From: a virus
Lineage: Duplodnaviria; Heunggongvirae; Uroviricota; Caudoviricetes
DNA: 64,000 nt
Virus record (IMG/VR): IMGVR_UViG_2706796243_000001
Strand: one strand, 5' to 3'
Shown one piece after another: positions 9,942 to 61,914 of the stretch; positions within the stretch are counted from its first letter, which is position 1; each line of letters starts with the position of its first letter. The notes beneath the pieces are model-generated. The model was not told the DNA's origin. It worked only from the letters and a program-made list of their open reading frames with translations, and did not search any database. A program made the position numbers and the translations under genes.

Positions 9942-9974
9942 GGCCAAAATCTTTACAAAACCAGGGCTTGCTTT

Positions 9975-10172: not shown

Positions 10173-10176
10173 GTAA

Positions 10177-19905: not shown

Positions 19906-19914
19906 TTATCCACC

Positions 19915-20429: not shown

Positions 20430-20430
20430 C

Positions 20431-21134: not shown

Positions 21135-21144
21135 TATTTTTCCC

Positions 21145-41946: not shown

Positions 41947-42561
41947 TTACCCTTTTTCTACGGATACTCCCTCCATGAACTTCTTCCCGATCAAATACGC
42001 ATCCGCATAATCCGCCTTACCAGCCGCGAGCGTAAGACCGTCTAACCAGCCAGGCATGTCGCACTCAACAGCCCTGACCATATGCGATTTTTCCATCTTC
42101 ACTTGGCCCGTTGAGTATACCTTCTTACCTGTCTTTTTGTCAACCTTTTCTTTCACAAAAGTGCGCTCTTCTTCCGGTAAAAGACCTCTTGCAAAAGATT
42201 TCACAGATGTTGGTGCAACAGTGTGGATTGAACCATACCCTAAAATACCAAACTGGTACAATGCGTACACAATGCAGTAAAAAAGGCCAGCCAAATCACG
42301 AGTTGCACTACCGATAGAACCAAGACTGAGGGCTTCCATGACGTAGTGGTCAATTCTGTGCTCCTCTGCCAAGGTTGTTATCTTGTTCACAATATAACGG
42401 ATTTGCTCATAAACGTTGTCAAAATAAACAACATCCTTCTGCCTCTTCCCTTTACTGTGTGTTGAGCCTGTCCTGATCATTTCCCTGTAAACGGGAACTC
42501 CATGTTCCCATATTACGACAGCACAGTGACTTAGGCTTTGGTCAACCGACATCAACTTCAT
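41947..42561 (-). CDS. hypothetical protein, possible RuvC/RNase-H-fold nuclease
   Basis: N-terminal LMSVDQSLSHCAVVIW loosely resembles the RuvC GIDPG...GyaV start; tentative. Confidence 0.4.
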   Translation of the reverse strand: MKLMSVDQSLSHCAVVIWEHGVPVYREMIRTGSTHSKGKRQKDVVYFDNVYEQIRYIVNKITTLAEEHRIDHYVMEALSLGSIGSATRDLAGLFYCIVYALYQFGILGYGSIHTVAPTSVKSFARGLLPEEERTFVKEKVDKKTGKKVYSTGQVKMEKSHMVRAVECDMPGWLDGLTLAAGKADYADAYLIGKKFMEGVSVEKG

Positions 42562-42859: not shown

Positions 42860-43989
42860 ATAACCCCCACGCGACGAAGTTCAGTTGTGAGCGTAGTATG
42901 GTCGTTGGCAGTTCGCTTCATGTAAACCATCTGGAAGATGATTGAAGCCCATTGCCCTGCGGTCATCTTGCGCTGTAAACCATCCCAAGAGGTGAACTCA
43001 ACCCCATTAGGGAACCAAGTCTTGTACTGGTCAACGATTGCCGTCCACATTTCCTTCTCGTTCTGAAGATGCCCGATCAGGTTGAATGCAGCAGTATCTC
43101 CAAAACGCCCAGAGATATCGAAGCATTGATAAGGCTTGATATTGTCTGAACTGTCCCCGCAAAGCATCTGGTAGCCAAAGAACTTACGTCCCCATCCCTT
43201 GACCTTGTTTCCTTCCATCCAGATCTCACCCATAGAATCGTCGATAATCATCGGGATCGGGTGTTTCCAGTTTTTCTCCTCGCTATCACGCATCGTATCA
43301 AGAAGTAAACCCGGTGTTCCTTTCTGGTCCTTGTCGAACGACGCAACCATGTAGTTGAACTTACCAGTCGCCTGGAAGTGTTCCCATCCGGTATACATCA
43401 GAACAGACAGGTAATCATCTGCCTCAACACCATCAATGACCTTGGCATTATACTTCTTCTTGACATACTCGCGGGTTTCCTTCAACAGCAAAGGACGAAG
43501 GGTGTCTTCACGGTTTCCTTTGTAACGTTCCGGTGCTGGTAACAACAGACGGAAGTTGTTGTCCCCGCCGAGCACACCAAGGCCATTGCTGCTGTCCATT
43601 CCCAAATGTTCAAAGATAGCATTAATCTTTGTCTTCAGGATATGCAGGCAGTGTTCCACTGGTTCAGGGGTTTGAATATCTTCGATTAAGAAGTCATCTC
43701 TTCCCCAAGGGGTGAACTCACGGCCTTCAGCTTTCGCCTTCACTTCCATATTGGCGTTCTGGTCCTTCAACCATCCGCCAACCACCTTCTTGGTGGAACC
43801 CCAGAACTCTGTTCTGTTTTTAAAGATCTTTGACCGACCAGAAGCGATGTGAGTTGCCTTAATTGTACGCTTCTCAGCGCCAGCGGCAGACACAAAGCAA
43901 GTCTGGTCAAGGTCTAAAGCGATCACACAGTCATTCGTGACTTTATTTTTCCAATCTTTATCATACGGATATCCCACTAGCCCTCTCAA
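42856..43989 (-). CDS. rnh: 5'-3' exonuclease / RNase H (T4 rnh / FEN family)
   Basis: GVEADDYLSVL (compare T4 YEADDHIAVL) and LCGDSSDNIKP (FEN helix-hairpin-helix GDxSDN). Confidence 0.65.
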   Translation of the reverse strand: MRGLVGYPYDKDWKNKVTNDCVIALDLDQTCFVSAAGAEKRTIKATHIASGRSKIFKNRTEFWGSTKKVVGGWLKDQNANMEVKAKAEGREFTPWGRDDFLIEDIQTPEPVEHCLHILKTKINAIFEHLGMDSSNGLGVLGGDNNFRLLLPAPERYKGNREDTLRPLLLKETREYVKKKYNAKVIDGVEADDYLSVLMYTGWEHFQATGKFNYMVASFDKDQKGTPGLLLDTMRDSEEKNWKHPIPMIIDDSMGEIWMEGNKVKGWGRKFFGYQMLCGDSSDNIKPYQCFDISGRFGDTAAFNLIGHLQNEKEMWTAIVDQYKTWFPNGVEFTSWDGLQRKMTAGQWASIIFQMVYMKRTANDHTTLTTELRRVGVI

Positions 43990-44423
43990 TCGTTACTCAA
44001 ATACTCGTCCAAATACCGGACATCCAATTCCCATTTTTCCCGTTTACTGCGTTCGTGATATAAAGCGAAAGCCTCTTTCACGTACTGTTCTGCAATTTGT
44101 CTGGAGACACCATTGACCTTCATGAAGTGACGAAGAGCGATTTCCCCCCTACCACGAATACCCGCCAAACCAATATGTTTGACTTCGTGGCAGGATGGAC
44201 AAAGTGCGATCAGACCTTTTAGCGTGATCTTGCCATTGCCAAAGTCCCAGATTTCGTGACACTCTACGGGGTGTTTGGTTCCTTTTCCCCCGCAAATCTC
44301 ACATTTATAATTGGCTTTTGCATAACATTTCTTCCTTACGACATCCCAATTGGACTTAGAGAGGTGAGAGCGTAAGTTAGTGAACCAAGCTGTTTTAGGA
44401 ACCAGTTCAATCTCTAATTTCAA
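43986..44423 (-). CDS. Zn-finger / HNH-like small nuclease-fold protein (145 aa)
   Basis: CEICGG...HPVECHEIWDF...CPSCHEVKH. Confidence 0.4.
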   Translation of the reverse strand: MKLEIELVPKTAWFTNLRSHLSKSNWDVVRKKCYAKANYKCEICGGKGTKHPVECHEIWDFGNGKITLKGLIALCPSCHEVKHIGLAGIRGRGEIALRHFMKVNGVSRQIAEQYVKEAFALYHERSKREKWELDVRYLDEYLSND

Positions 44424-44944
44424 TGCACCTCCATAGTGTCAATTACTCGGTCAATCGCTTTGTGCCAGCAATTTCCGAGAAGGTTAAGACCTTTCCAGTT
44501 GGTTGGGTCCTCTACTCCTGGGTCGTTCTCAGCCATCTTGATTCCCCAGATTGCATCGTAGGGAGATGCCTCAACAAAGACCCTGCCTTCTTTACGAAGC
44601 TTGATAGCCGCATCCTTAATGGTGGGATTAGCCATCATCTTGGCATAAAGACCATTCACAACGATATTTTCACGAAACGCTTCCCATTTGCTGTTGTCGA
44701 AGTTCTTCACCCGCCGACCAAGTTTCTTAGCCTCTTGGGGGTGATAAACATTAGCAATATCAACCGCGATATTTGTATCGCCAAACAGCATAGCCTTTTC
44801 ATACATCATGAAGTGTTCTACAGTCCAGAACTTTGCACCAACCGCTTGGTGTTTTGGCATCCAGAAAGGATTGGCACAGCGATAATGATTACTGAAGATA
44901 TCGTATTGGGTGAAAAAGAAAACAAACTTATCCGTTACTCTCAT
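44420..44944 (-). CDS. NADAR (YbiA/DUF1768) family ADP-ribose-processing hydrolase
   Basis: FVFFFTQYDIFSNHY...WTVEHFMMYEKAMLFGD matches the NADAR signature F.....SNf....f.....EH..q..K. Confidence 0.7.
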   Translation of the reverse strand: MRVTDKFVFFFTQYDIFSNHYRCANPFWMPKHQAVGAKFWTVEHFMMYEKAMLFGDTNIAVDIANVYHPQEAKKLGRRVKNFDNSKWEAFRENIVVNGLYAKMMANPTIKDAAIKLRKEGRVFVEASPYDAIWGIKMAENDPGVEDPTNWKGLNLLGNCWHKAIDRVIDTMEVH

Positions 44945-45131
44945 TTCTGCCCCTCCATGTCATGAATCCGGCAATACCCAGAACCCATAGGAATCCAAAC
45001 CTTAAAGCCCATCCGGGAATTTCCAACACCGGGACCGTCCATGTGAAAAATGCGAACAGGAGGGTGCCTGTATACCACCCCAACAACATCGTAAAGGCAT
45101 AAAACAGAAGCAGGCCAAAGAACTTTTTCAT
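44928..45131 (-). CDS. hypothetical membrane protein (67 aa)
   Basis: Two TM helices. Confidence 0.35.
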   Translation of the reverse strand: MKKFFGLLLFYAFTMLLGWYTGTLLFAFFTWTVPVLEIPGWALRFGFLWVLGIAGFMTWRGRNESNG

Positions 45132-45140
45132 AAAATCACC

Positions 45141-45335
45141 TCAGTGGAATGTCTTTTTGGAAGGACAAGAACCAGCGCCATCCTTAACAAAGGATTCTGT
45201 GCGATTACCATCACTGTAAATGCAGACTTTGGAGCTTCCATCGGTGTATTCGTCCACCAAGGTGAGGGTGTTGACTGTGGCGAATGCCGGGGAAGAGAGC
45301 AGTAATACTGCTATGAAGAATTTTACTCGGATCAT
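45141..45335 (-). CDS. small secreted protein with signal peptide (64 aa; start trimmed)
   Basis: AGGAGA RBS before MIRVKFFIAVLLLSSPAFA; a signal peptide. Confidence 0.4.
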   Translation of the reverse strand: MIRVKFFIAVLLLSSPAFATVNTLTLVDEYTDGSSKVCIYSDGNRTESFVKDGAGSCPSKKTFH

Positions 45336-45398
45336 TTTGTATCTCCTTTTTATATGTTGAGACCCGATGATAATCATCACCGGGCCTTTTGTCAACTG

Positions 45399-46289: not shown

Positions 46290-46515
46290 TAGTTTGGTTC
46301 TCCTCTTTGATTTTGTATTCAGTTTTTACGTTTTCGTCAACGTACTCATCAACAATCTTTGCTACGTAAGAAGCAGCAGACTTATTCTTGGAACGGGCCA
46401 GAGCCTGCAACTTTTCCCACGTAGACGCTTTAAGATTTAGCAGCATTAACCCCTCCACGTTTAATAAACACCTTTCGGAGCCAGTACCATACAACAACTG
46501 GGGCGGAGAATACAA
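46282..46515 (-). CDS. hypothetical protein (77 aa)
   Basis: ORF. Confidence 0.35.
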   Translation of the reverse strand: MYSPPQLLYGTGSERCLLNVEGLMLLNLKASTWEKLQALARSKNKSAASYVAKIVDEYVDENVKTEYKIKEENQTNA

Positions 46516-46633
46516 GGGCGAAACCGCCCATGACTAAAAGTGTATCCTTTGCTGAAACCAGAGTCGGTACTGCGAACCCGAAGATGAAGCACAAGAAAAC
46601 AAAAAGTCCAACACCATTCAGGTAATATTTCAT
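46430..46633 (-). CDS. hypothetical membrane protein (67 aa)
   Basis: Two TM helices; lies immediately after the SPFH gene, as HflC/NfeD-like pairs commonly do. Confidence 0.35.
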   Translation of the reverse strand: MKYYLNGVGLFVFLCFIFGFAVPTLVSAKDTLLVMGGFALVFSAPVVVWYWLRKVFIKRGGVNAAKS

Positions 46634-46947
46634 TAGTTGCTCCCGCGACCAAACAGAATATCGGCTTCTGTCATCTGCTCAACCTGCTCTTCCAGGTCTT
46701 TACGCTTTTTACCTGCTTGATACTGGCGATCAAATTCTGCGTTAATCAAGGTCTTGATGAACTTAGGATCGTAGTTGTGGCTGTCTTTTTCGACGGCAAC
46801 AATGTCTTTGAACTGGCTTGCCGCATCTTTCTGAGCGATTTTGGCATCAACACCTTCCTGAACAACCTTCTTCAGGCGTTCACGCTCAACAGCGTCAGAA
46901 GGCAGGGTGTTTTTCAGTTCTACTTTGATTTTAGGCATACGTGGCAT
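46633..46947 (-). CDS. hypothetical protein (104 aa)
   Basis: ORF; charged. Confidence 0.45.
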   Translation of the reverse strand: MPRMPKIKVELKNTLPSDAVERERLKKVVQEGVDAKIAQKDAASQFKDIVAVEKDSHNYDPKFIKTLINAEFDRQYQAGKKRKDLEEQVEQMTEADILFGRGSN

Positions 46948-47015
46948 AGTTTTGTTTCTCCTCTGTTTGTTTAGTCAGTTAAGTATAACTATTTAAATAT
47001 TTTTGTCAAACACTT

Positions 47016-47246
47016 TTACGAATCAATTCCTACAATCTTTCCACCTATTGCTTCGATCTGGGCGATGTAGGTAGGAAGATTTTCCAGACTACATTCATAC
47101 GCGAATTTTTTGGTATTCCCCCAACGTCGCTTCATAGTGAAGCGAAGCATATATCGTGCTGTGGGGCCGCGATTAATCATCGTAATACCAAGACGCTTCA
47201 ACATGTCCCGAACTTCTTTGATCGTGTTTTCGTACTTATCTTCCAC
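47016..47246 (-). CDS. hypothetical protein (76 aa)
   Basis: ORF. Confidence 0.4.
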   Translation of the reverse strand: MEDKYENTIKEVRDMLKRLGITMINRGPTARYMLRFTMKRRWGNTKKFAYECSLENLPTYIAQIEAIGGKIVGIDS

Positions 47247-47300
47247 CAGTTTCTCCTCTCTGTCTTGATGGGGTCCATTATATAGACCCCCTCTTTATTG

Positions 47301-47993
47301 TCAAGCGATAATTTTCGGTTCTACGAAAGTGGTTGGCTTCATGATCTTGCCTTTACTATCGAAGAACACAATATGTTCACCACTACGCACAGCAGTTACA
47401 GAGTTGTAACGTCCTTTGGAGCGTATTTCAATCTCCTTGCATTCAGCAGTCAGCAACTCGTCATCAGTGTACAGATGAAGGGTTGGATGAACATCGCGAA
47501 GTTGTGCGATTGTAGGGTACTTAGAATCGTTTGACGTAAGCACTTGGCGCATATTGTAGTCCAAGTTAATATCTAATCGATAGCATAACGCTACAGACCG
47601 CTCAAGAACAGCACGAACAGATTCAATGGATAATGGTGTATTGAAAATGAGTTCTACCATCTCACCAATGTTGAACTGTACCATCCCATCAGGCTTCATT
47701 GCTTTTTCCCAACGAATACCAGAAGATTCAAGCAACCAGAAAGCATAGGACGAGACGACAAAGAGATCGCAAGCACCATCTACAACCTCGATACGATTGC
47801 CATCTTCAAGAGCCTTAACAAGCTCTTTGAATTCTTCTTCAACGAAAGAGAATTGCAAATCAATCGGAGTAGCCTTACCGCCGCGAGCGACACGAGCAAT
47901 ATGGTTCCATTGGGCTACATGACGACCATATTCAACAAGGTCTTTCGGTTTTGTCATTGACAGTAGGGTTTCATAAGTTACGCCGAAGTTCAT
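47301..47993 (-). CDS. MazG-like nucleoside triphosphate pyrophosphohydrolase (tentative)
   Basis: EEEFKELVKALEDGNRIEVVDGACDLFVV resembles the MazG E..EL...........E.GD core. Confidence 0.4.
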   Translation of the reverse strand: MNFGVTYETLLSMTKPKDLVEYGRHVAQWNHIARVARGGKATPIDLQFSFVEEEFKELVKALEDGNRIEVVDGACDLFVVSSYAFWLLESSGIRWEKAMKPDGMVQFNIGEMVELIFNTPLSIESVRAVLERSVALCYRLDINLDYNMRQVLTSNDSKYPTIAQLRDVHPTLHLYTDDELLTAECKEIEIRSKGRYNSVTAVRSGEHIVFFDSKGKIMKPTTFVEPKIIA

Positions 47994-48002
47994 TTATTCT
48001 CC

Positions 48003-48374
48003 TTAATTAACAACATCTGAAGCATGATCACCATCAGGCTGATCACGAATAATTCTTAATGGCAGCAGCGCTCCGTTCTTTGCAACGAAAAGACACTTAT
48101 CGCCATAACTCCCGTTCTTATACCACGAATAGGAGGTATTAACCTTGTATGCCATGCCATCAAACTGGCATGTCATTGTGTTCCACAACGGTTTGATAAG
48201 GGCCAGCGTCACAAGACCCAATACAACCGCCCAGACAATCAGTAAACGCTTAATCTTTCCCTGAGTCCAGTCGATAAAATCATCGAGCTTATCTTTACGG
48301 AATCGGTAGGCGAGATAAATCCCGCCACCAGTGAGTATTGTTGCACCAAGCAACGCCAGTCCATACCAGATCAT
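48003..48374 (-). CDS. hypothetical membrane protein (123 aa)
   Basis: Two N-terminal TM helices. Confidence 0.45.
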   Translation of the reverse strand: MIWYGLALLGATILTGGGIYLAYRFRKDKLDDFIDWTQGKIKRLLIVWAVVLGLVTLALIKPLWNTMTCQFDGMAYKVNTSYSWYKNGSYGDKCLFVAKNGALLPLRIIRDQPDGDHASDVVN

Positions 48375-48838
48375 TATGCACGTACCTCAGTGACTTTTAC
48401 AGCAGTTTCACCACGGATCTGGACATTAGACCCATCGTCGAGTTCAAGAATGGTGTCATCACCACTTACCTTGACCCCTTTGACGAGATATTCTTTGCCC
48501 CACATCTCAACCTTATCACCCATCACCACGTTCTTAGCCTTGTAATCACCAGGTAGACGATCTTCATCGGTCACAGGCTCATACAGGTCGCTAAAATCCT
48601 GTGGTGACATTGCACGGAATTGGTCGCCAACCTTAACGATATAATCACCAGGAAAAGCTTGGGTCCCATTCACATCCATGTTACGGATGTCTCGTGTGTG
48701 AATCTCTGAGTCTTTCCAGACACCAGTCTCCATCCACTTTGTCACTTGACCAACACCTGTGCTCGAACCATTGAACACATGTGCTTCCACTTCTTGAGGT
48801 TTTCTCTTATAAAATGCCATCAGTATACAGGCTCCCAT
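48374..48838 (-). CDS. hypothetical protein (154 aa)
   Basis: ORF. Confidence 0.45.
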   Translation of the reverse strand: MGACILMAFYKRKPQEVEAHVFNGSSTGVGQVTKWMETGVWKDSEIHTRDIRNMDVNGTQAFPGDYIVKVGDQFRAMSPQDFSDLYEPVTDEDRLPGDYKAKNVVMGDKVEMWGKEYLVKGVKVSGDDTILELDDGSNVQIRGETAVKVTEVRA

Positions 48839-50121
48839 GTTAATGAATCAACTTCTCGTACACTCTGCCCTACAGGGAACTGAGGAACACCGTCGTCAGT
48901 CCTTGCTTGGAATGTGAAGTTGATGAACTTACCGACCAGAAGTAACATTCTCGCTTGAGAACGTTCTTCACGCGTCCCCTTCATCTTACAGTTAAATCTG
49001 GTTCCGTCTTTTTCTTCGCAGAGGAGAACGCCCTCACCGTTTTTGTCCTCCACAGAGTCCAACACCTTCGCTTCACCATCCTGGAACAGCTTCCATTTCT
49101 GAAGGTCGGAAGATCGCTGACCGAATTCATACACGCCTTTGAAGTTGCGGATAATAACACCTTCATAACCCTCTTGCATGTATCGCCCAATGAACCGCTT
49201 AACCGCATCTTCATTCAGGACAAACTCACCACGAACAACATTTATTTTTGGTGCATTGACCTCACAATCAAGTGAATACATCACGCTAACAAGATCAGAT
49301 AGTCGGTTTTTATCATGGCTCTCTGAATGCCACGGGCTGTTTGCGTTTACAGGAATATCGAAAATGTGATATTCAAGGTCCAAACTTGAGTAACCGCCAT
49401 ATCGGTCAACATCTTTCACCGGTTCAATACTTACATCGTATTCATCACCATCAAAATCTTTCCATACTTGCTCACCGTTGTCAATAGCTTTCTGATAGCG
49501 TTTCAGATCTGATTGGTAATCCTTTTCAATCTCAACCTCGATCTGCTCAGGTGTACGCCACTTCTTAGCCAGAGCAACAATCTTCTGTAAGCTCAGACCA
49601 TGAATATATAGTTCACCATCAAATTTGTCAAACCCAGTATGCTCTGCAAGTTCTTTTGTCTGCTGCAACAATGCACCTTGAACAGGGTACGTCTTGTTTC
49701 CGCGACTATTAAATACTGGGATACCATCTTTGTCAAGAGTTACAAGGGCGCGTACCCCATCAAGCTTAGGCTGCACATAAGCAGGGTAAACTAATGCTTT
49801 TGAACGTTTAATTGCATCGTGTGCGAGCATGGGAGAGAAGTTCTCCTCAGTCTGTAACGCCTCTTTTGTCTCACGATAACCAAGGCGTACTTGCTTCTCC
49901 CATTTTGATCGCGCTTCAAGCACAGCCTGAAATGCAGCAGTTGTTTGATTAGCACGACCAACATTTTTCATTTCACATTTGGTACGTTTTTGCTGTACCT
50001 TTCCATTTTCTTTACCAAACTCAACAACTACCTCATCGCCCTCTGTTCTAACATTCCAGACCTGATAAGATCCGTCCTTGTTAATGGCGTACAGTGTTGG
50101 GGTATCTAAAGCAATCGACAT
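48820..50121 (-). CDS. ATP-dependent DNA ligase
   Basis: Motif I KLDGVRAL (KxDG) and later nucleotidyltransferase motifs; 433 aa. Confidence 0.8.
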   Translation of the reverse strand: MSIALDTPTLYAINKDGSYQVWNVRTEGDEVVVEFGKENGKVQQKRTKCEMKNVGRANQTTAAFQAVLEARSKWEKQVRLGYRETKEALQTEENFSPMLAHDAIKRSKALVYPAYVQPKLDGVRALVTLDKDGIPVFNSRGNKTYPVQGALLQQTKELAEHTGFDKFDGELYIHGLSLQKIVALAKKWRTPEQIEVEIEKDYQSDLKRYQKAIDNGEQVWKDFDGDEYDVSIEPVKDVDRYGGYSSLDLEYHIFDIPVNANSPWHSESHDKNRLSDLVSVMYSLDCEVNAPKINVVRGEFVLNEDAVKRFIGRYMQEGYEGVIIRNFKGVYEFGQRSSDLQKWKLFQDGEAKVLDSVEDKNGEGVLLCEEKDGTRFNCKMKGTREERSQARMLLLVGKFINFTFQARTDDGVPQFPVGQSVREVDSLTWEPVY

Positions 50122-50897
50122 TATTTCTCCTTACCTTGTAATGCTGTCTTACATTCAAGATGATCTTCCACAATCTTGATGAAATTGTTGTTGCTGAAAG
50201 CCTCTACAGCACCACAACGGAATTGCATAACACCATGAGCATCATACTGCTCTTGCTCAAGATAGTTGATACGTGGGTTTACCACAAGCACCTTTGTTCC
50301 TCTACGAACAGCAGGAAACAACTCCCAGTTGAAGTTGATGACTGTATTTGAGCATCCGACAACGATCACCATATCTTCATTGGTAAGGGTGTCAAGGATG
50401 TCATACATCCTGCTGTATTCTGGTGCAAATTCACCAAAGAACACAACATTGGGCTTACACCATTTATACTGATCAGGATCAACCTCGTTATAGCCTACAT
50501 CAATAATCTCCGGCTTTCCTTTCGGGTTGTCCTTGACAATGATTTCCTTCAGGTATCCATGAATGTAGACCGTATCCTCTTTCGGCACACCAGCACGTTC
50601 CAAAAGATCATCAACGTTGGTGGTCAAGTTAACAACCTGCCCTGGATAACGCTGGAACCACTCTGCAACGCGAAGGTGAGCCAGGTTCGGATGAACAGTC
50701 GGCAGTTCAGCACGACGCTTATTGTAAAACATGTGGGTTTTATGGTAGAAGTTTCCACGGAATGCGTGGATATTGCAAACCTCTTCCAGATCGTATTCAT
50801 CCCACAACGCCTTACCTGTTGACTCATCAGTACGGAAAGTTCGAACACCACTCTCAGCAGAGAAACCAGCACCAGAAATAACAATCAAACGTCTCAC
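50121..50897 (-). CDS. Sir2-family NAD-dependent protein deacylase / ADP-ribosyltransferase
   Basis: GAGFSAESGVRTFR Rossmann NAD-binding motif typical of sirtuins. Confidence 0.8.
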   Translation of the reverse strand: MRRLIVISGAGFSAESGVRTFRTDESTGKALWDEYDLEEVCNIHAFRGNFYHKTHMFYNKRRAELPTVHPNLAHLRVAEWFQRYPGQVVNLTTNVDDLLERAGVPKEDTVYIHGYLKEIIVKDNPKGKPEIIDVGYNEVDPDQYKWCKPNVVFFGEFAPEYSRMYDILDTLTNEDMVIVVGCSNTVINFNWELFPAVRRGTKVLVVNPRINYLEQEQYDAHGVMQFRCGAVEAFSNNNFIKIVEDHLECKTALQGKEK

Positions 50898-50906
50898 TTA
50901 TTTCTC

Positions 50907-51314
50907 CTATTGTAATTTCAACGAGTTACGCAGACGACGCTCTTGAGCATCTCGTGTTTCCTGCGGAACGCTGTGAATAGAATCGTTACCATGACGGTTT
51001 TCAACCACCAAGCTAACTACTTGATATCCATAATCATTAGCCAAGTCAAGGTACGGTTTAATTTCTTTCTCGCTGGTTGAGGTATTTGAAACGATCACGC
51101 GATCATAACCGATATCCATTGCCAGGCGAACGTTTTTCTGGCACCACTCGTGCGCCTTGTGCTGGTTTTCCTGCTTCCACCGGTACTCACCATCAACATA
51201 GTGGAACATATCCGCTTCGTAATGTGGAACATTGCTGTCATTCTTCAGGAGTTCTGCAACGGTTGATTTACCCGCACCAGAAACCCCACGAAGGATGATT
51301 AATGTCTTTTCCAT
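50907..51314 (-). CDS. P-loop polynucleotide 5'-kinase-like protein (T4 Pnk kinase-domain-like)
   Basis: Walker A GVSGAGKST; 135 aa; collinear with the N-terminal kinase domain of T4 Pnk. Confidence 0.5.
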   Translation of the reverse strand: MEKTLIILRGVSGAGKSTVAELLKNDSNVPHYEADMFHYVDGEYRWKQENQHKAHEWCQKNVRLAMDIGYDRVIVSNTSTSEKEIKPYLDLANDYGYQVVSLVVENRHGNDSIHSVPQETRDAQERRLRNSLKLQ

Positions 51315-51323
51315 ACCCTCTCC

Positions 51324-51689
51324 TCAGTAATTGTTTCTCAGAATGGTTACACCATACCGTGCCAAACTATCTTTTGCAAGCATAAACTTATGCCCTGCTG
51401 AAGGGTTCGATGTGTGAACGAACAGCTTGACCGGGCCAAAGAGCATCTTTCCGAAGACAATCTTTTCCTCAAGCGCCAGGAAACACCAATACCCATCATG
51501 ATCAGAATCTTCTCCAAGATCATTATCGAAGTGCCACTCCGTGACACGACGATATGGTTTTGACCGATTTTCGAGAAACTGAATAAAATCCTGCGAATTT
51601 TTTATCCACAAGGCATCTGGATGCCCGTAATTAACGGGGTCCCTTAAGTCATCGAGCCACACCAACATAAAAACGACTCCCACGGTCAA
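51324..51689 (-). CDS. hypothetical protein (121 aa)
   Basis: ORF. Confidence 0.4.
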   Translation of the reverse strand: MTVGVVFMLVWLDDLRDPVNYGHPDALWIKNSQDFIQFLENRSKPYRRVTEWHFDNDLGEDSDHDGYWCFLALEEKIVFGKMLFGPVKLFVHTSNPSAGHKFMLAKDSLARYGVTILRNNY

Positions 51690-52626
51690 AGAGATCTTCT
51701 ATCGTAAAATAATCTTCAACTATCTTACGACGCTGCTGTGAATCCATAGCTGACCAAGCATCTTTGGTGTAGTATTCACGAATATGGTCAAGCAATTCGT
51801 AATACTCTTCATCAATACGCTGCTTTGCGTTGTCTGGATGATCCCAGATCATATCCCACTTGTTATCACCACCACGCATCAAGAACTTCTTCGCCAGATA
51901 ATGAGGGGATTTGATTTTCAACAGTAAGCTGAACGGATAGTTTGGCTCACGCACAACATAACCTTCGTGGTTGCAATGCTTTGACATTTCAACAACATCT
52001 GAAAATTTAACCATCTGGTGAACTTCAGGACGCTTGAATTTAGTAACATTCGCGATTCCGTCAAGAGCACCTTCAGGCAGCATAAAACTTGTGCCGTCAC
52101 GGTTCTGGATTCGAGCACCAATCAGGTACGCCCCAGGCTCTTCATCAACAATATGCGGATCAGATGGATCACAGATTTCGAAGATGAACGTCGCCTTTGC
52201 ACTTTCTGTCCACTTAATGAAGTGCTCAATGTCATTGCATTCAGCAATGATGTGATTCTTCGCCAGAACTGCAAAGTCTGATTCCAGAGTTCCTGTAGTT
52301 GACACCACAAGCTGGCCCTTATACACACCAGCGGATGCCATAAATCCATTAACTTTACGAACTGCATCAACCACCTTGTCTGCCGGAAGGTCTGTGCCAT
52401 TTTCGAAGTGATTGAAAATCTTGGTGAAAGGCCAGATAACCACATTGTCATCCGAATCAACCACCATGCCACGGCATTCCAGGAGACGTGGATCTGTGTT
52501 CCACAGATTATCCCAGAAGACATTGTTTTTGTACTTCAGAACTGATAGGCCAGCGAACGGGCCATCAGTGTAAGTCTTCTTGGTGACCAGCTTTTTAGCG
52601 ACCAGATCGTCTACGTTAAAGAGCAT
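51649..52626 (-). CDS. ATP-dependent RNA ligase (Rnl2-like nucleotidyltransferase)
   Basis: Motif I KVNG, motif III FIFEIC, motif IV EGYVVR and motif V LKIKS are all present; 325 aa. Confidence 0.6.
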   Translation of the reverse strand: MLFNVDDLVAKKLVTKKTYTDGPFAGLSVLKYKNNVFWDNLWNTDPRLLECRGMVVDSDDNVVIWPFTKIFNHFENGTDLPADKVVDAVRKVNGFMASAGVYKGQLVVSTTGTLESDFAVLAKNHIIAECNDIEHFIKWTESAKATFIFEICDPSDPHIVDEEPGAYLIGARIQNRDGTSFMLPEGALDGIANVTKFKRPEVHQMVKFSDVVEMSKHCNHEGYVVREPNYPFSLLLKIKSPHYLAKKFLMRGGDNKWDMIWDHPDNAKQRIDEEYYELLDHIREYYTKDAWSAMDSQQRRKIVEDYFTIEDLFDRGSRFYVGVAR

Positions 52627-53252
52627 GTTTCTTCTCCCATTAGGATGTCATATTCAATTTTTGCAATAATATCTTGCAGCTTTTGTCTTATTCTAACATC
52701 CTGTTCTGAGATTGCAAGAGATTTTGCATGATTTCTCTTTTCAATTTGCCAAGCTTTATGAGCATCGGTTTCTGTTCTGAAACTACCAATATACCTTCCT
52801 TTGTAGTGGCAGTAAAATGTGTCCGCAAGGCGGGTTTCTTTGGAAACCCCTATCATATACTTGCCATTTTTCTTAACAGATGAAAAGAATTGATTACATT
52901 CTTGTGTTACGAATGCACAAGACTCTGGTGAGTATATTTTTCCGTCACCGAGGATATCCTTATCCAAGTAGAGGCCAGCAACATCCGTATCACCAACCCA
53001 CGAAATGAAATTGGAAAGGTAATACCATTCATCGCATACTGATACACTTTCATAATATTGGTGTTTATTGTGCTTTACAAGACATCTTCGCAACATATTT
53101 CGCCACTTAAGATATACAGGATGGAAAATCCTTTTTCCATCAACAACCCTCTGTGTAATTATATCAGAGTCATTGATACCAAGAGGGGAGCTAAGATCTT
53201 TTTTCATAACCATCTGCCTGATAATACGTTGTATTATACGGTGTCTCAACAC
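52611..53252 (-). CDS. freestanding homing-endonuclease-like protein with AP2 DNA-binding domain (paralog of 949..1536)
   Basis: YLKWRNMLRRC...YESVSVCDEWYYLSNF and GRYIGSFRTETDAHKAW; overlaps both neighbouring genes. Confidence 0.5.
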   Translation of the reverse strand: MLRHRIIQRIIRQMVMKKDLSSPLGINDSDIITQRVVDGKRIFHPVYLKWRNMLRRCLVKHNKHQYYESVSVCDEWYYLSNFISWVGDTDVAGLYLDKDILGDGKIYSPESCAFVTQECNQFFSSVKKNGKYMIGVSKETRLADTFYCHYKGRYIGSFRTETDAHKAWQIEKRNHAKSLAISEQDVRIRQKLQDIIAKIEYDILMGEETCSLT

Positions 53253-53547
53253 TGAAGCTTACCTGGCATAATTCCTGAGCCAAGTATGTCCCAAGTTCAA
53301 CAGCCATGTCAAGAATTTCATGTTCTGGTCGCTCAAAACGAGGATACTGCATGATACGCACAGTCATACCGTCTTCCACACCACCAGTATAAACATAAGT
53401 ACAAGGGGAAATCTGCACACATGCTCCCCTCATCACCCAGTGTCGGCAAAGATTTTCCGCCTGGTTGTAACTGCCAGCAATATGTATTGTGGCGTAAAAA
53501 GATTTTGATGTTTTCTTAGGCAAGAAATTGCGTTTTTGGTTGTGCAT
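53191..53547 (-). CDS. hypothetical protein (118 aa)
   Basis: ORF. Confidence 0.4.
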   Translation of the reverse strand: MHNQKRNFLPKKTSKSFYATIHIAGSYNQAENLCRHWVMRGACVQISPCTYVYTGGVEDGMTVRIMQYPRFERPEHEILDMAVELGTYLAQELCQVSFSVETPYNTTYYQADGYEKRS

Positions 53548-53556
53548 ACCATCTCC

Positions 53557-54150
53557 TCAGTGATGAATATCGTAAATAGGCTTTTTAAGGCACTCAGAAA
53601 CGGCCTCAAGCATCGTCAAAGGACGACCGTGGACATCCCAACCCACATCAAGGATTCGTCCACCAGGTGCCTTATATGAGCCGTGGCTATGTCCGTGGAG
53701 CATGACTGATCCGTGGTGTGCTTTATTCCAAGATGCAAACGGGTAGTGCGACATACACACCCGAACTTTTTCTTTTCCTGTGCTGAAATCAATTTCTTTA
53801 TAGTCAACAACTTCGTGACCAAACTCGCGAAATACCCGCTTTGTCGTGTGGTTGTCGTGGTTGCCACCAACCAAAATGATCTTTCCGTTGATTCGGCTAA
53901 GAATGTCACGAACCTTCGGCTCCACATGCTTACCATACGCGATCACAAAATCACCTAAATGTGCAACAACATCATCAGGTTTCACATGTTTGTTCCATGT
54001 TTTAACCATGTCGTCATTCATCTTGACAACACTCGCTGAATCTTCTTTCGGTCCGTACAGGTTTTTACGGAACTTATCACAGGATGGGAAACCAAGAATA
54101 TTGGTATGCCACCAATGTGTATCTGATGTTACATGATCGATATTAGTCAT
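53557..54150 (-). CDS. calcineurin-like metallophosphoesterase
   Basis: GDFVIAYG, GNHD and GHSH motifs. Confidence 0.7.
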   Translation of the reverse strand: MTNIDHVTSDTHWWHTNILGFPSCDKFRKNLYGPKEDSASVVKMNDDMVKTWNKHVKPDDVVAHLGDFVIAYGKHVEPKVRDILSRINGKIILVGGNHDNHTTKRVFREFGHEVVDYKEIDFSTGKEKVRVCMSHYPFASWNKAHHGSVMLHGHSHGSYKAPGGRILDVGWDVHGRPLTMLEAVSECLKKPIYDIHH

Positions 54151-55859: not shown

Positions 55860-56420
55860 ATGCTTGAAGTTATAAAATCGAAAGAGATAAGTGCTTCTGA
55901 AAAGGTTCTTTTGATGTTTATGGGGTTGAATGGTGTTGGGGTTTATACTTACCAAGATTTCATAAACTCCACAGGGTTGAGTAGAGCCACTGTTGGTAGG
56001 TCACTCTCTTCTCTGTATGAAAAGGGTTGGATCGAGAAGAAAACCGCCATCTCTGACAGTGGAGCGGAGAGTATTCAGTACAGTATTTCGTTTGGTGATT
56101 CTACAAATCCAAAATTTGAAAGAACCTGCTACGTTTATGTTCAAGAGCTTGCAGGCCCAGGCTTAACAATCGGAAAAGTTGGTATAGCATTTAATGTTTT
56201 CGAAAGAATGCGCCAACAATCAAAGAAAAGTTTGTTTCAGCACAAACTGATGTACTCCAAGCTGTTCAAAAGTTATGCTGAAGCTGCCAAAGTTGAGCAG
56301 ATTGTGTTGAGTGCGATCCCACAATTTGTTTGTGAAAAAGATTGGTTACCTGACGGCTTCACAGAGACAATCCACAAGCAAGATATTTTAAAGGCTATTC
56401 AAATAATTGAGGAGAAATAA
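55860..56420 (+). CDS. winged-helix DNA-binding protein (186 aa)
   Basis: YQDFINSTGLSRATVGRSLSSLYEKGWIEKK, a MarR/Rep-like wHTH. Confidence 0.5.
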   Translation: MLEVIKSKEISASEKVLLMFMGLNGVGVYTYQDFINSTGLSRATVGRSLSSLYEKGWIEKKTAISDSGAESIQYSISFGDSTNPKFERTCYVYVQELAGPGLTIGKVGIAFNVFERMRQQSKKSLFQHKLMYSKLFKSYAEAAKVEQIVLSAIPQFVCEKDWLPDGFTETIHKQDILKAIQIIEEK

Positions 56421-57222
56421 AATGAGTTTAGAACTTCGTCTGAACAACCTGATAGTCCCTGTTGATCGCCTTACATTCAAGGGTGGTGAAGAACAGGTTA
56501 AGATCGATTTAAGTTATGCACCAAAAGGTCACATTGGTTTTGTTGACATCACAGCAAAAATCAAGACATCTGCGGATGTTATGGCTCTTGCTCTGCTGGC
56601 AGATGCTTGCTCTCGACTTGATAACATTGATATTCATGCACAGTATGTCCTTCACCTGCCGTACATCCCCTATGCGCGTCAAGATCGTGTTATGCAACCT
56701 GGCGAGGCATTGTCCATCAAGGTTTTTGCAAACATCGTTAACTCACTTGGGTTTGATAAGGTTATCGTAGATGACCCGCACAGTGATGTTTCTGCTGCAC
56801 TTCTGAACAATGTTCGTATTCGGCACCAACATGAACTTGCAGCATCCTATAGTGATGTACTTGCTGGTAGGGATGTTACGATTATCGCACCAGATGCCGG
56901 AGCACGTAAAAAAGCGCAGAAGGTTTCTGAACATCTCCGTCTTCCGCTTGTTGAAGCAGGTAAGGTCCGTGATGTAAAAACTAACGAGATCACAGGTACT
57001 GCTGTCTTCGGGGATGTTACTGGTCGTGAATGTGTCATCGTTGATGACATTTGTGATGGTGGTCGCACATTCATCGCCCTTGCACAAGCGTTGAAGGAGA
57101 ATGGTGCAAAACGTGTTATCCTTTATGTAACACACGGTATTTTCTCATTCGGCAAGCAGGTCATTCTTGATGGTGGTGTAGATGAAATTTATGCATATCA
57201 CGACTGGACAGAAAACTTCTAA
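56407..57222 (+). CDS. ribose-phosphate pyrophosphokinase (PRS)-like protein; candidate ADPR-PP synthetase (Adps-like)
   Basis: PRTase PRPP-binding loop VIVDDICDGGRTF; shorter than bacterial Prs at 271 aa; lies directly upstream of the NAMPT-like gene. Confidence 0.7.
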   Translation: MRRNKMSLELRLNNLIVPVDRLTFKGGEEQVKIDLSYAPKGHIGFVDITAKIKTSADVMALALLADACSRLDNIDIHAQYVLHLPYIPYARQDRVMQPGEALSIKVFANIVNSLGFDKVIVDDPHSDVSAALLNNVRIRHQHELAASYSDVLAGRDVTIIAPDAGARKKAQKVSEHLRLPLVEAGKVRDVKTNEITGTAVFGDVTGRECVIVDDICDGGRTFIALAQALKENGAKRVILYVTHGIFSFGKQVILDGGVDEIYAYHDWTENF

Positions 57223-57289
57223 AATTTCTTGACATAGTATAAAACGGGTGCAAGAATGCACCCACAAATTTCACAGAGGAGAAACAAAC

Positions 57290-58984
57290 ATGCTGCATAA
57301 AGAAAGCCCGATTACTTTCGCTGATTTTTACAAACCGAGTCACATCTCGATGTATGACAAACGTTCTGAAATTGTTCAGGACAATATGACCGCCCGTAAC
57401 GCAAAGCACTTTATCCACTTCGCAGACAATGACCACCGTGTGATGTTTGCTGGTATTCAGGGATTCATCAAGTGGTTCCTGATCGATATGTTTAATGAAA
57501 ACTTTTTCAAACGCTCAAAGGAAGAAGCGATTTCAGATTATAAAGAAATTTGCGAACTGAGTATTGGACCGGGTATGGTGGAAATGTGGGGTTTTGAGAA
57601 GCTACACGATCTTGGTTATCTACCTCTGGAAATCCGTGCTTTACCAGAAGGCACTCTGGCTCCGGTGCAGGTTCCAATGTTCACTATCCAGAATACCCAT
57701 CCGGATTTTTACTGGTTACCGAACTTCCTGGAAAGTGTGATGTCAGCAGAAACCTGGAAAACAATCACAACTGCAACAACATTCTGGCAATATCGTAAAC
57801 TGTCTGAGAAATGGGCTGCTGAAACATGTGATAATAATCTGCATGTTCCTTTCCAGAACCACTGTTTTGCATATCGTGGTGAAGGTGGGACACATGACGC
57901 AGCACAGAGTGAATTTGGTCAACTGATCAGTTCTATGGGTACTGATACCATTCCCGCGATTGTGTATGCAAATCGTTATTACAACATGAAAGGTAAGTTC
58001 GTTTCTGGGTCTATCCCTGCATCTGAACACAGTGTTGCAACAACCAATATCGGTTTCATCGTTAATGAGATTGAAGAAAACACAGCAAATCAAGAATTCC
58101 TGAGCCTTGATCATAAACGTTATCTTGCAGAAGTCGAGTTCCTGAAGCGCTACATCACGGAAATTTTTCCGAAAGGTTTTGTTTCCTACGTTGCAGATAG
58201 CTATGACTTCTGGGCGATTATCACGAAAGCAGCAGCAATCTTGAAACATGAAATTCTTTCTCGTGAAGGTCGTGTTGTATTTCGTCCTGACTCAGGTATC
58301 CCTGAGCATATTATTGCCGGGTATCGCTGCTTGGGTGAGTTCGATGACTGGTCAGATGCTCACACAGCATTACAGGATGATTCAAACTCTGAAGTTGCTA
58401 AGATTGAGGGTAAATATTATCGCATTCTGGTAGATGATGAAGATAATGCATTCTTTGATTTCCAAGAGTCAGGTCTTGAAGATCATGAGGTAAAAGGTGC
58501 AGTAGAATGTTTGTGGGAAATCTTTGGTGGAGAAGTTAACTCCAAAGGGTACAAAGTTCTTGATAGTCATGTCGGCCTGATCTACGGTGACTCTATCACT
58601 GTTGCTCGTGCAAAAGATATCTTTGAACGACTGAAAGATCGTGGCTTTGCATCGAGTAACATCGTGTACGGTGTTGGTTCTTACACAACCCAGTACACAA
58701 CTCGTGATTCACTGGGTATGGCTGTGAAAGCAACGGGTGCAGTTATCGACGGCAAGCAGATCATGGTTGTCAAAGAGCCGAAGACTGACCTCGGTAAGAA
58801 ATCTGCAAAAGGTTTCCTGAAGGTTATTCGTGATGAAGACAATCAGTTAAAACTGGTTGACAATCTGGAGGTGCATGAGGTACAGTCTCGTGATAACGAA
58901 CTCCGTTGTGTCTTCCGAGACGGTCAGTTGATGATTGACGAAGACCTGACACAGATTCGTGATCGGGCAGCTTCTCAGCTTTAA
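57290..58984 (+). CDS. nicotinamide phosphoribosyltransferase (NAMPT/NadV)-like protein; candidate Namat
   Basis: GAGGAG RBS before ATG 57290; ~565 aa NAMPT-family protein with G.DS..YG.GS blocks; terminator follows. Confidence 0.75.
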   Translation: MLHKESPITFADFYKPSHISMYDKRSEIVQDNMTARNAKHFIHFADNDHRVMFAGIQGFIKWFLIDMFNENFFKRSKEEAISDYKEICELSIGPGMVEMWGFEKLHDLGYLPLEIRALPEGTLAPVQVPMFTIQNTHPDFYWLPNFLESVMSAETWKTITTATTFWQYRKLSEKWAAETCDNNLHVPFQNHCFAYRGEGGTHDAAQSEFGQLISSMGTDTIPAIVYANRYYNMKGKFVSGSIPASEHSVATTNIGFIVNEIEENTANQEFLSLDHKRYLAEVEFLKRYITEIFPKGFVSYVADSYDFWAIITKAAAILKHEILSREGRVVFRPDSGIPEHIIAGYRCLGEFDDWSDAHTALQDDSNSEVAKIEGKYYRILVDDEDNAFFDFQESGLEDHEVKGAVECLWEIFGGEVNSKGYKVLDSHVGLIYGDSITVARAKDIFERLKDRGFASSNIVYGVGSYTTQYTTRDSLGMAVKATGAVIDGKQIMVVKEPKTDLGKKSAKGFLKVIRDEDNQLKLVDNLEVHEVQSRDNELRCVFRDGQLMIDEDLTQIRDRAASQL

Positions 58985-61069: not shown

Positions 61070-61146
61070 GGTTCTGTAGCTTAGTTGGTTAGAGCGCTTC
61101 CCTCATAAGGAAGAGGTCGCAGGTTCAATTCCTGCCAGAACTACCA
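61070..61146 (+). tRNA. tRNA-Met (anticodon CAU; could also be an Ile lysidine type), CCA encoded
   Basis: Cloverleaf: acceptor GGTTCTG/CAGAACT, D-arm AGCTTAGTTGGTTAGAGC, anticodon arm CTTCC-CTCATAA-GGAAG, T-arm GCAGG-TTCAATT-CCTGC. Confidence 0.8.
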
Positions 61147-61838: not shown

Positions 61839-61914
61839 GGGGTATTAACACAGCGGTTAGTGTAGCGGCCTCTTAAGCCGAAGGTCGAAGGTTCGAATCC
61901 TTCATGCCCCACCA
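61839..61914 (+). tRNA. tRNA, probable Lys (anticodon CUU), CCA encoded
   Basis: Acceptor GGGGTAT/ATGCCCC (one G-U pair), D-stem ACAC/GTGT, anticodon loop CTCTTAA (one mismatch in the stem), T-arm GAAGG-TTCGAAT-CCTTC. Confidence 0.6.

Follow-up and report, generated by a model that had tools for sequence, protein, structure and literature searches.

The window analysed here, a 64,000-nt stretch of DNA, is that of Salmonella phage SSE121 (Vequintavirinae, Seunavirus). Its minus strand carries a 174-aa open reading frame that, in the ORF list and with the stop codon included, coincides exactly with the NADAR entry of Table 1 (44420..44944). The encoded protein is identical to SSE121 ACQ19_gp206 (YP_009149002.1), which the record labels 'hypothetical protein'. 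Small membrane proteins, an SPFH protein, an HNH endonuclease and an exonuclease are encoded around it. A 180-aa frame overlapping it on the plus strand (44423..44965) was set aside, since nothing supports it beyond its mechanical detection as an ORF.

Table 1. Features at and around the NADAR locus of the SSE121 window.
Feature	Coordinates	Strand	Basis
HNH endonuclease gp205, phrog_5200	43986..44423	-	
NADAR coding sequence gp206, 174 aa	44420..44944	-	ORF, Pfam, structure
Variable allele cassette (NADAR + gp207 slot), sharp edges	44420..45150	-	Cross-genome identity
gp207, 67-aa hydrophobic small protein, phrog_37400	44928..45131	-	
Shine-Dalgarno sequence GGAGGGG, 5 nt upstream of the NADAR ATG (44944), within the gp207 3' end	44950..44956	-	Direct sequence reading
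gp208, 64 aa, N-terminal signal-peptide-like segment, phrog_4641	45141..45335	-	
Sigma70-like promoter candidate, TTGACA-17-TATCAT, 11/12	45367..45395	-	Consensus match only

The protein was assigned to the NADAR family by the Pfam model PF08719 (DUF1768), which matched gp206 residues 13–160 at model positions 9–155 of 163 (E=1.8e-36; 126.3 bits, cutoff 35.1). A further match was obtained with phrog_1017 (9e-53), and PDB searches returned the NADAR structure 8BAU (1.7e-12) and YbiA 2B3W (2e-3). In PADLOC, PDC-M42C was the sole model matched, and the DarG model did not match. Match strength of this order lies far beyond chance, and gp206 is a genuine, intact phage NADAR gene, as the sequence-only reading of the locus had it. 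TIGR02464, named 'riboflavin biosynthesis intermediates N-glycosidase', also scored above its cutoff (118.2 bits versus 73.7), and some homologs in relatives carry the database labels 'N-glycosidase YbiA' or 'GTP cyclohydrolase II'. Such names would suit a housekeeping N-glycosidase of the YbiA type, destroying reactive intermediates of the riboflavin pathway. However, TIGR02464 is a domain-level model common to the whole NADAR superfamily, the window has no annotated riboflavin genes, and gp206 shares only 24–28% identity with E. coli YbiA, which belongs to a different clade. The 'GTP cyclohydrolase II' labels, for their part, probably originate in RibA–NADAR fusion proteins. We consider a riboflavin role the least credible of the readings discussed here, and highly improbable. 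JGI names some of the homologs 'ribA/ribD-fused'.

An AlphaFold model of gp206 (pLDDT 97.4, pTM 0.92) predicted a YbiA-like alpha-helical core with small beta sheets at its flanks. When this model was submitted to Foldseek, the only significant matches were 8BAU, the NADAR of P. nicotianae (TM 0.80), and 2B3W, YbiA (TM 0.74). Residues E43, K50, R77, W87, R91, E125, D130 and W133 align with the catalytic or ADP-ribose (ADPr)-contacting residues of 8BAU, which have been described for the P. nicotianae enzyme (PMC11543638), so that on alignment gp206 keeps the full published set. The catalytic Glu/Lys pair is numbered E43/K50 in P. nicotianae and E88/K95 in E. coli C7. Across 60 homologs, E43, K50, W87, E125 and D130 are invariant and R77 is conserved in at least 90%. 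An alignment check of the catalytic residues had been proposed in the sequence-only reading, and gp206 passes it with its Glu/Lys/Glu set retained. At the diagnostic position (E125 of P. nicotianae), gp206 has Glu125, within the motif VEASPYD. Glu is likewise found there in 8BAU, YbiA, the enzyme of phage Bas60 and the sigma70-linked NADAR, and His in T4 gp30.3. Judged by this residue, gp206 classes as a Glu-type (NADAR/YbiA-type) enzyme and neither as T4-type (His) nor as BC4488/DarG1-type (Asp).

The genes flanking the NADAR on the same strand suggest a common expression unit. gp207, whose 3' end runs 17 nt past the NADAR start, is part of the variable cassette; by tblastn, it was unmatched in GAP31 and five other syntenic loci. 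Downstream of the promoter-like site, gp208 comes first; the site itself sits between the stop codon of the SPFH gene and the gp208 Shine-Dalgarno sequence. This site is a candidate promoter for gp208–gp207–NADAR–HNH, although the total of sigma70-like sites did not exceed shuffle expectation. On the other side, the TTG start of gp205 overlaps the TGA stop of the NADAR (TTGA) and is preceded by GGAGGTG, so that the NADAR and gp205 are translationally coupled. Comparison of SSE121 with six syntenic loci gave 81–95% identity for gp205, and among GAP31 and L006–L008 it was 97–100%.

The nearest experimentally tested relative of gp206 is AdfN^Bas60 (bas60_0111) of Escherichia phage PaulScherrer, with 43.4% identity over 173 aa (E=5e-38). 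Both are orphan stand-alone phage NADARs of similar length (183 aa for AdfN^Bas60, 174 aa for gp206) that have an identical catalytic set including the diagnostic Glu, match PADLOC PDC-M42C and have no N-terminal extension. They are not syntenic, as the AdfN^Bas60 gene adjoins that of an FtsH-like protease, whereas gp206 lies between small membrane-protein genes and the HNH endonuclease. In current taxonomy, the Bas60 phage belongs to Stephanstirmvirinae and SSE121 to Vequintavirinae. AdfN^Bas60 neutralises DarT1 and restored plaquing of three DarTG1-sensitive phages, though not on DarTG2 (Johannesman et al. 2025, PMC11825919). Equally similar to gp206 (43.4% identity over 122 aa) is the stand-alone NADAR of the E. 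coli sigma70 operon (rpsU-dnaG-rpoD-linked), which has the same catalytic residues and the motif VEASP.D.IWG in common with gp206. It differs in being a bacterial chromosomal gene product of 187 aa with a longer N-terminus, in another clade; it hydrolyses guanine-linked ADP-ribose (G-ADPr) and gives partial rescue from DarT1 toxicity (Cihlova et al. 2024, PMC11125620). In a neighbour-joining tree, from which AdfN^Bas32 was left out, the Seunavirus NADARs formed a clade with bootstrap 100 next to the Bas60 clade, with 24–40% support at intermediate nodes. Here, gp206 fell in a clade separate from AdfN^Bas60, the sigma70-operon NADAR and YbiA.

Other family members are more remote. AdfN^T4 (gp30.3) is an orphan phage NADAR directed against DarTG1, the role proposed below for gp206. 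However, the two proteins are barely alignable (19% identity with MAFFT, no BLASTP match), and AdfN^T4 has His in place of Glu125. AdfN^T4 is effective only within T-even infection and does not neutralise DarT1 alone. DarG1, the DarT1-associated antitoxin of the BC4488 family, shares with gp206 the superfamily and presumably de-ADP-ribosylation at guanine N2, but it is encoded beside DarT1, whereas gp206 has no DarT or other ADP-ribosyltransferase (ART) next to it. Comparison of gp206 with DarG1 rests on published residue numbers rather than direct alignment, since a DarG1-type structure was sought in the PDB with phmmer and then with a 60-sequence profile, and only 8BAU and 2B3W were found. 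With this numbering, the catalytic Glu is at position 43 in gp206 and 88 in E. coli C7 DarG1, which suggests that gp206 lacks an N-terminal extension of ~45 residues. Similarly, two positions ahead of the conserved Glu, DarG1 has a catalytic Asp where gp206 would have Phe123. The P. nicotianae NADAR 8BAU is eukaryotic and 32% identical to gp206, with one-for-one correspondence of the ADPr-binding residues. E. coli YbiA, a bacterial housekeeping gene product linked to riboflavin intermediates, gives no protection against DarT1 in vivo.

From these relationships, we lean, with slightly better than even confidence, towards gp206 being an AdfN-type counter-defence enzyme that would strip ADP-ribose from guanine and oppose DarTG1. 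It would be made during infection as a catalytically intact stand-alone NADAR ADP-ribosylglycohydrolase, probably from the sigma70-type promoter upstream of gp208 and as the third gene of the coupled gp208–gp207–NADAR–HNH unit. A host guanine-specific ART, either DarT1 of DarTG1 or a similar toxin, would add ADP-ribose to guanine N2 in the phage DNA and block its replication. gp206 would then cut the N-glycosidic bond, releasing free ADP-ribose and restoring the base, so that G-ADPr DNA is its most likely substrate and counter-defence its most likely role. All NADAR subfamilies tested so far strip G-ADPr in vitro. Such activity is no predictor of protection in vivo, because neither E. coli YbiA nor T4 gp30.3, both active in vitro, rescues E. 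coli from DarT1 toxicity. An anti-DarTG1, plaquing-restoring role is established only for the T4, Bas32 and Bas60 enzymes (PMC11825919). No ART toxin was annotated or detected in the window, and gp206 is an orphan NADAR without a cognate ART beside its gene. Nothing specific on how prevalent DarTG is in Salmonella emerged from a search of the literature.

The sequence-only reading had likewise proposed an anti-DarT function, but against DarT2-type toxins acting on guanine. The function itself is reasonable, given that the 43%-identical AdfN^Bas60 counters a DarT toxin; the toxin was misnamed. NADARs reverse the guanine-ADPr made by DarT1, whereas DarT2 modifies thymidine, a mark reversed by the macrodomain protein DarG2, and phage NADARs gave phages no rescue from DarTG2. 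Nor is the idea new: phage NADARs had been described (PMC9503650), and their anti-DarTG1 function has been demonstrated (Johannesman et al. 2025, PMC11825919).

A side result, which is new, is that the NADAR slot constitutes a sharply bounded allele cassette swapped by recombination among Seunavirus phages. When GAP31 is compared with L006, identity at the nucleotide level climbs abruptly from ~0.68 to 0.98 at the NADAR stop/HNH start, and at the other edge it recovers just downstream of gp208. Near-identical Seunavirus backbones, with flanks 93–100% identical, carry NADAR alleles with 53–87% amino-acid identity, and the NADAR is exchanged independently of its neighbour genes. The GAP31-type allele, at 60% identity, and the L006–L008 type are among these alleles. 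Their dS is far above that of the flanks, in many cases to saturation, whereas dN/dS is only 0.05–0.16. On these values, positive selection in place was rejected as the source of the divergence; allele import by recombination is the better fit. The low dN/dS, together with the conservation of the catalytic motifs across alleles, also indicates that gp206 is functional. A 150-nt stretch beside the cassette that is 100% conserved was rejected as a structured RNA, as it belonged to no Rfam family and folded no better than shuffled sequences (z = +1.8).

A hyper-exchanged position of this kind is typical of counter-defence genes. Variation among the alleles is focused in the 21–40 loop and peripheral helices, and the active-site residues are identical in all of them. 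Tentatively, and with far more doubt than belief, we suggest that the slot may be a hot-swappable counter-defence cassette whose anciently diverged alleles are perhaps tuned to different host toxins, adducts or NADAR inhibitors. The same exchange of deeply diverged alleles between near-identical backbones, and the location of their differences, could also mean that gp206 reverses nucleic-acid ADP-ribosylation by a transferase other than DarT1, such as cytidine-ADPr or RNA guanosine-ADPr from pierisin/ScARP-like or YarT-like enzymes, possibly with allele-specific targets. Glu-type NADAR/YbiA enzymes do remove C-ADPr from DNA and RNA, all NADARs tested remove G-ADPr from RNA, and in myxobacteria a YbiA serves as antitoxin to YarT, an ART that is not a DarT. 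Against this, enterobacteria are not known to use such a toxin in phage defence, the active site is uniform across alleles, and the exchange is equally explicable as neutral mosaicism, since gp211–214, gp216 and gp202 are just as variable as the NADAR. A non-DarT1 target appears quite unlikely to us.

The wider surroundings of the gene include several functions in NAD and RNA metabolism. The minus-strand block of the NADAR also contains a T4 Rnl1-like RNA ligase (gp221), a P-loop kinase (gp219), a metallophosphoesterase (gp224) and the Sir2-family protein gp218 (Pfam 79.7 bits), the latter in the same orientation and 5.2 kb upstream. An RlaP-like nucleotidyltransferase and a CCA-adding enzyme are encoded farther off. 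On the opposite (plus) strand, 11.5 kb away, the adjacent genes gp229 (Pribosyltran_N, Pribosyltran and Pribosyl_synth domains) and gp230 (NAPRTase domain) form a pair whose predicted domain architecture is that of the NARP1 two-gene operon described by Osterman et al., namely Prs-like (PF14572) plus Nampt-like (PF04095). A DprA-like gene is found at 17 kb. The sequence-only reading had seen in Sir2, the NAD pair and the DprA-like gene, together with endonuclease VII and RNase H, a coordinated region against host ADP-ribosylation and NAD-based immunity. This view is weak: at these distances the genes are not a linked module, the Sir2 gene is missing from GAP31 and L008, both of which have the NADAR, and the NADAR moves without its neighbours. 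Endonuclease VII and the exonuclease belong to the usual repertoire of replication/recombination genes. As speculation, ADP-ribose released from DNA, along with nicotinamide, could feed the phage's NARP1-like Adps/Namat pair for NAD+ regeneration.

Similar associations have been reported in other phages, in which NADARs co-occur with SLOG, Macro, Nudix and NAD-salvage genes (Iyer et al. 2022, PMC9503650). In an unrelated large phage (contig L013), a SIR2 gene lies ~1 kb upstream of the phage's own NADAR. When the closest non-Seunavirus homologs were checked for a partner toxin, two were apparently in large-phage contexts and the third was at an acidobacterial locus with no informative partner.

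Two further readings draw on this context. One, argued for phage NADARs on contextual grounds by Iyer et al. (PMC9503650), is that gp206 acts mainly on soluble low-molecular-weight ADP-ribose derivatives, such as NAD-derived immune signals or by-products of RNA repair, alongside the RNA-repair and NAD genes; the co-location of gp221, gp219, gp224 and gp218 in one block, the more distant RlaP-like and CCA-adding genes and the SIR2–NADAR proximity in L013 are all consistent with it. Yet no NADAR is known to act on such signals, and G-ADPr DNA is the in vivo substrate of every phage NADAR tested. In the window, a KptA/Tpt1-type gene was not seen, and the RNA-repair genes lie at least 6 kb off and are not exchanged along with the cassette. 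We regard this reading as unlikely. The other holds that gp206 moderates the phage's own Sir2 by removing Sir2-made ADP-ribose adducts instead of countering a host toxin. The orientation and position of gp218, the SIR2 neighbourhood in L013 and the co-expression of T4-like NADARs with phage ARTs (PMC9503650) would suit such a pairing, but the retention of the NADAR in the two genomes that lack Sir2 shows that it is not obligate, and gp218 is not known to have ADP-ribosyltransferase activity. This makes a partnership with Sir2 very unlikely, and counteraction of DarTG1 is the reading that we retain.

Taken in the context of the family, gp206 is an ordinary further NADAR, related phage enzymes having a proven anti-DarTG1 role, and current understanding of NADARs is unchanged by these findings. 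The annotation can be corrected, both for the SSE121 'hypothetical protein' and for those relatives mislabelled 'GTP cyclohydrolase II', and the allele cassette supplies a naturally occurring set of divergent NADARs in isogenic-like backbones with which to study specificity. If the proposed function is confirmed, the AdfN counter-defence class would be extended to the Seunavirus group, whose members infect Salmonella, Cronobacter, Klebsiella and E. coli and are frequently put forward for use in biocontrol and therapy, and this would aid prediction of which of them infect DarTG1-carrying strains.

The 3.5 kb around gp206, the open reading frame under study, matched Salmonella phage SSE121 (JX181824 / NC_027351; Vequintavirinae, Seunavirus) at 100% identity; in that genome gp206 is labelled 'hypothetical protein'. 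RefSeq already carries the label 'NADAR family protein' for the orthologs in GAP31, 4MG and KB57, and homologs in other records are named 'N-glycosidase YbiA' or 'GTP cyclohydrolase II'. The sequence-only reading had assigned gp206 to the NADAR family, and this assignment was confirmed by matches to Pfam NADAR over nearly the whole length (126.3 bits; cutoff 35.1), TIGR02464 (118 bits) and phrog_1017 (9e-53), and by sequence matches in the PDB to the ADP-ribose complex of P. nicotianae NADAR (8BAU) and to YbiA of E. coli (2B3W). An AlphaFold2 model computed with 60 homologs (pLDDT 97.4, pTM 0.92) gave the same two entries as its only significant structure matches, with TM-scores of 0.80 and 0.74, respectively.

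In P. nicotianae NADAR, ADP-ribose is contacted by E43, K50, R79, W89, R93, E125, D130 and W133, and guanine de-ADP-ribosylation depends on a Glu/Lys pair plus a third acidic residue (Schuller et al. 2023, PMC11543638). At this third, diagnostic position, YbiA-type enzymes carry Glu, DarT1-linked (BC4488) enzymes Asp and T4-like phage enzymes His (PMC11543638). The gp206 counterparts in phmmer and MAFFT alignments were E43, K50, R77, W87, R91, E125, D130 and W133, of which E43, K50, W87, E125 and D130 were invariant across 60 homologs and R77 was at least 90% conserved. In the column of E125, T4 gp30.3 carries His. The catalytic residue (Glu or His) whose loss would have spoken against the earlier proposal is thus present, and gp206 is classified by alignment as a NADAR of the Glu type.

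T4 gp30.3 (AdfN, an anti-DarT factor NADAR) strips ADP-ribose off phage DNA and thereby defeats DarTG1; the unrelated phage enzymes AdfN^Bas32 and AdfN^Bas60 neutralised DarT1 in uninfected cells and let three DarTG1-sensitive phages regain plaquing, and none of the three affected DarTG2 (Johannesman et al., PMC11257639; Nat Commun 2025, PMC11825919). In BLASTP, gp206 was closest to AdfN^Bas60 (bas60_0111 of Escherichia phage PaulScherrer; 43.4% identity over 173 aa, 5e-38), whose gene is not syntenic with it, followed by the E. coli sigma70-operon NADAR characterised in PMC11125620 (sequence from strain TUM14697; 43.4%, 122 aa, 7e-31), the 8BAU fragment (31.6%, 136 aa, 2.6e-17) and YbiA (28.2%, 124 aa, 7e-8); T4 gp30.3 gave no match. 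In a bootstrapped neighbour-joining tree, gp206 fell within a Seunavirus-type clade that had strong support and adjoined the Bas60 clade; support at intermediate nodes was weak. Together with the sigma70-linked enzyme, these clades formed a broad 'stand-alone' group, and the gp206 clade lay apart from YbiA and P. nicotianae and distant from T4. In PADLOC, gp206 (44423-44944) and AdfN^Bas60 (L002:8001-8549) matched only candidate model PDC-M42C (100 and 117 bits) and no DarG model, and a family profile search of the PDB reached no DarG1-type entry. This model represents component C of a bacterial system that is a defence candidate, so bacterial relatives of both proteins may belong to an uncharacterised defence or toxin-antitoxin-like system.

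DarT1 modifies guanine, which is reversed by NADAR, and DarT2 modifies thymidine, which is reversed by the DarG2 macrodomain (PMC11543638, PMC11125620); the earlier statement that NADARs reverse DarT2 adducts was therefore mistaken. In the best-supported reading, towards which we lean slightly, gp206 is an AdfN-type glycohydrolase that would remove ADP-ribose from guanine N2 in DNA and so counter DarT1-like toxins. Greater confidence is placed in the narrower prediction that gp206 would hydrolyse ADP-ribosylated guanine (G-ADPr) in vitro, an activity shared by all NADAR subfamilies tested (PMC11125620). Such activity does not guarantee protection in vivo, as YbiA, and T4 gp30.3 in uninfected cells, were active in vitro without protecting (PMC11125620; PMC11257639, PMC11825919). 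Action on soluble derivatives of ADP-ribose or on by-products of RNA repair, as argued by Iyer et al., is a fairly improbable alternative, which draws on a cluster of RNA ligase, kinase and phosphoesterase genes upstream of gp206. Slightly less probable still is that gp206 acts on a different nucleic-acid adduct, for example C-ADPr or G-ADPr in RNA. A YbiA-like riboflavin role is unlikely; the window annotation holds no riboflavin, ART or macrodomain gene.

RNA-repair-type genes lie on the minus strand at 50907-54150 (T4 Rnl1-like RNA ligase gp221, P-loop AAA_33/Zeta-toxin-like kinase gp219, metallophosphoesterase gp224) and 18473-22615 (RlaP-like nucleotidyltransferase gp161, CCA-adding enzyme gp168, weak PTH2-like 'hydrolase' gp165), a set that suggests defence against tRNA-cleaving host systems.

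Features in and around the NADAR locus (window position = SSE121 record position minus 83745)
Feature	Position	Strand	Remarks
NADAR, ACQ19_gp206	44420..44944	minus	174 aa
gp207, hydrophobic ORF	44928-45131	minus	67 aa; phrog_37400; overlaps NADAR start
Promoter-like TTGACA-17-TATCAT	45395-45367		between gp209 (SPFH/Band-7 lipoprotein gene) and gp208; 11/12 consensus match
Exonuclease gp204			probably the proposed RNase H; about 0.4 kb from NADAR; phrog_107
Endonuclease VII, gp201			about 2.5 kb from NADAR; slightly under Pfam cutoff
Sir2, gp218	50121-50897	minus	Pfam SIR2 79.7 bits; 5.2 kb upstream of NADAR
NAD reconstitution pair, gp229/gp230	56422-58984	plus	Prs-like + NAPRTase-family; 11.5 kb from NADAR, opposite strand
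DprA-like/SLOG, gp179	26731-27363		phrog_768; 17 kb from NADAR
Mosaic genes besides NADAR	46430-48838 and 41947-42561	minus	comparison of Seunavirus relatives
tRNA-Met(CAT)	61070-61146	plus	Rfam + ARAGORN
tRNA-Lys(CTT)	61839-61914	plus	Rfam + ARAGORN

The Sir2, SLOG, NAD-salvage and nuclease genes, which the sequence-only reading had combined with gp206 into one coordinated region, are present but scattered over a block of early/middle genes of more than 35 kb, and endonuclease VII, the exonuclease and RuvC-like gp202 are ordinary replication/recombination genes. The architecture of the NARP1-like pair, Prs/Adps-like gp229 and Nampt/Namat-like gp230, matches that of NARP1 in Osterman et al. 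In large myoviruses, NADAR genes had already been reported to occur together with Sir2, SLOG and NAD-salvage genes (Iyer et al. 2022, PMC9503650). Sir2, beside an ATP-dependent DNA ligase gene, was found in four metagenomic Seunavirus-like contigs (L006, L007, L009, L010) and was missing from GAP31 and L008, both of which carry NADAR; that gp206 moderates the phage's own Sir2 is very improbable. In L013, an unrelated large-phage contig, SIR2 (L013:3245-3931) lies about 1 kb upstream of NADAR. Preceding gp229/gp230 (55860-58984, plus strand), gp228 gave weak winged-HTH matches, including 'wHTH-PRTase associated' (PF24409, below cutoff), and may be a dedicated regulator of this operon.

The NADAR ATG (44944) follows GGAGGGG with a 5-nt spacer, and the first 17 nt of the gene are shared with the 3' end of gp207. 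At its other end, the TGA stop overlaps, within TTGA, the TTG with which gp205 (HNH endonuclease) starts; gp205 has its own GGAGGTG. The promoter-like site suggests, from its consensus match, that gp208-gp207-NADAR-HNH would form one unit under host RNA polymerase, within a region where such sites were not above shuffle expectation (34 versus 29.1 +/- 6.1).

About 150 nt at 43910-44060 (3' end of gp205 and start of gp204, minus strand) were shared at 100% identity by SSE121 with GAP31 and with three metagenomic relatives, although dS in the flanking coding sequence between SSE121 and these relatives was about 0.8-1.3. The stretch holds a promoter-like site (43989-43960), with a terminator-like hairpin (44081-44065) just beyond its upstream edge; it had no Rfam match, and its predicted folding was not better than that of shuffled sequences (z = +1.8). 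It is possibly a regulatory element, homing-endonuclease target or recombination anchor. Elsewhere, both tRNAs are missing from the RefSeq feature table, and 1536-2720 and 9941-11631 (1.2-1.7 kb each) carry no annotated CDS, the latter where plus-strand genes give way to minus-strand genes.

Across six syntenic loci (GAP31 and five metagenomic contigs, L006-L010), the exonuclease, HNH and SPFH proteins were typically 87-96% identical to those of SSE121 (in the more distant L009, HNH 81% and SPFH 49%), but NADAR was only 60-80% identical. Between GAP31 and L006, HNH was 100% identical (dS 0.12) and SPFH 99% (dS 0.43), against 53% for NADAR (dN 0.42, dS saturated); between L006 and L007, the exonuclease was 99.5% identical (dS 0.20) and NADAR 63% (dS 1.79, dN/dS 0.16). 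Because dN and dS were both elevated in NADAR pairs from near-identical backbones, with dN/dS of 0.05-0.16, accelerated evolution in place was rejected in favour of an exchange of old alleles by recombination, each allele being under purifying selection. Sliding-window nucleotide identity set one cassette edge where NADAR stops and HNH starts (about 44420-44445) and the other a short way downstream of gp208 (about 45140-45160). gp207 is swapped along with the NADAR allele; tblastn found no match to it in the six relatives, and its slot is empty in GAP31 and holds an unrelated 60-aa ORF in L006-L008. Among alleles, catalytic segments 1-20, 41-50, 121-140 and 151-160 were conserved, and the 21-40 loop, peripheral helices and C-terminus varied. 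Equally mosaic were gp211, gp212 (regulator), gp213, gp214 (MazG-like pyrophosphohydrolase; 44-55% aa), gp216 and gp202 (69-78%), with neighbours at about 90% or more. Already published are the family assignment, the occurrence of NADARs in phages and the action of related enzymes against DarTG1; the recombination-cassette behaviour of the locus is new here, a modest addition, and its pattern suggests a counter-defence locus, though, given the other mosaic genes, it is not unique to NADAR.
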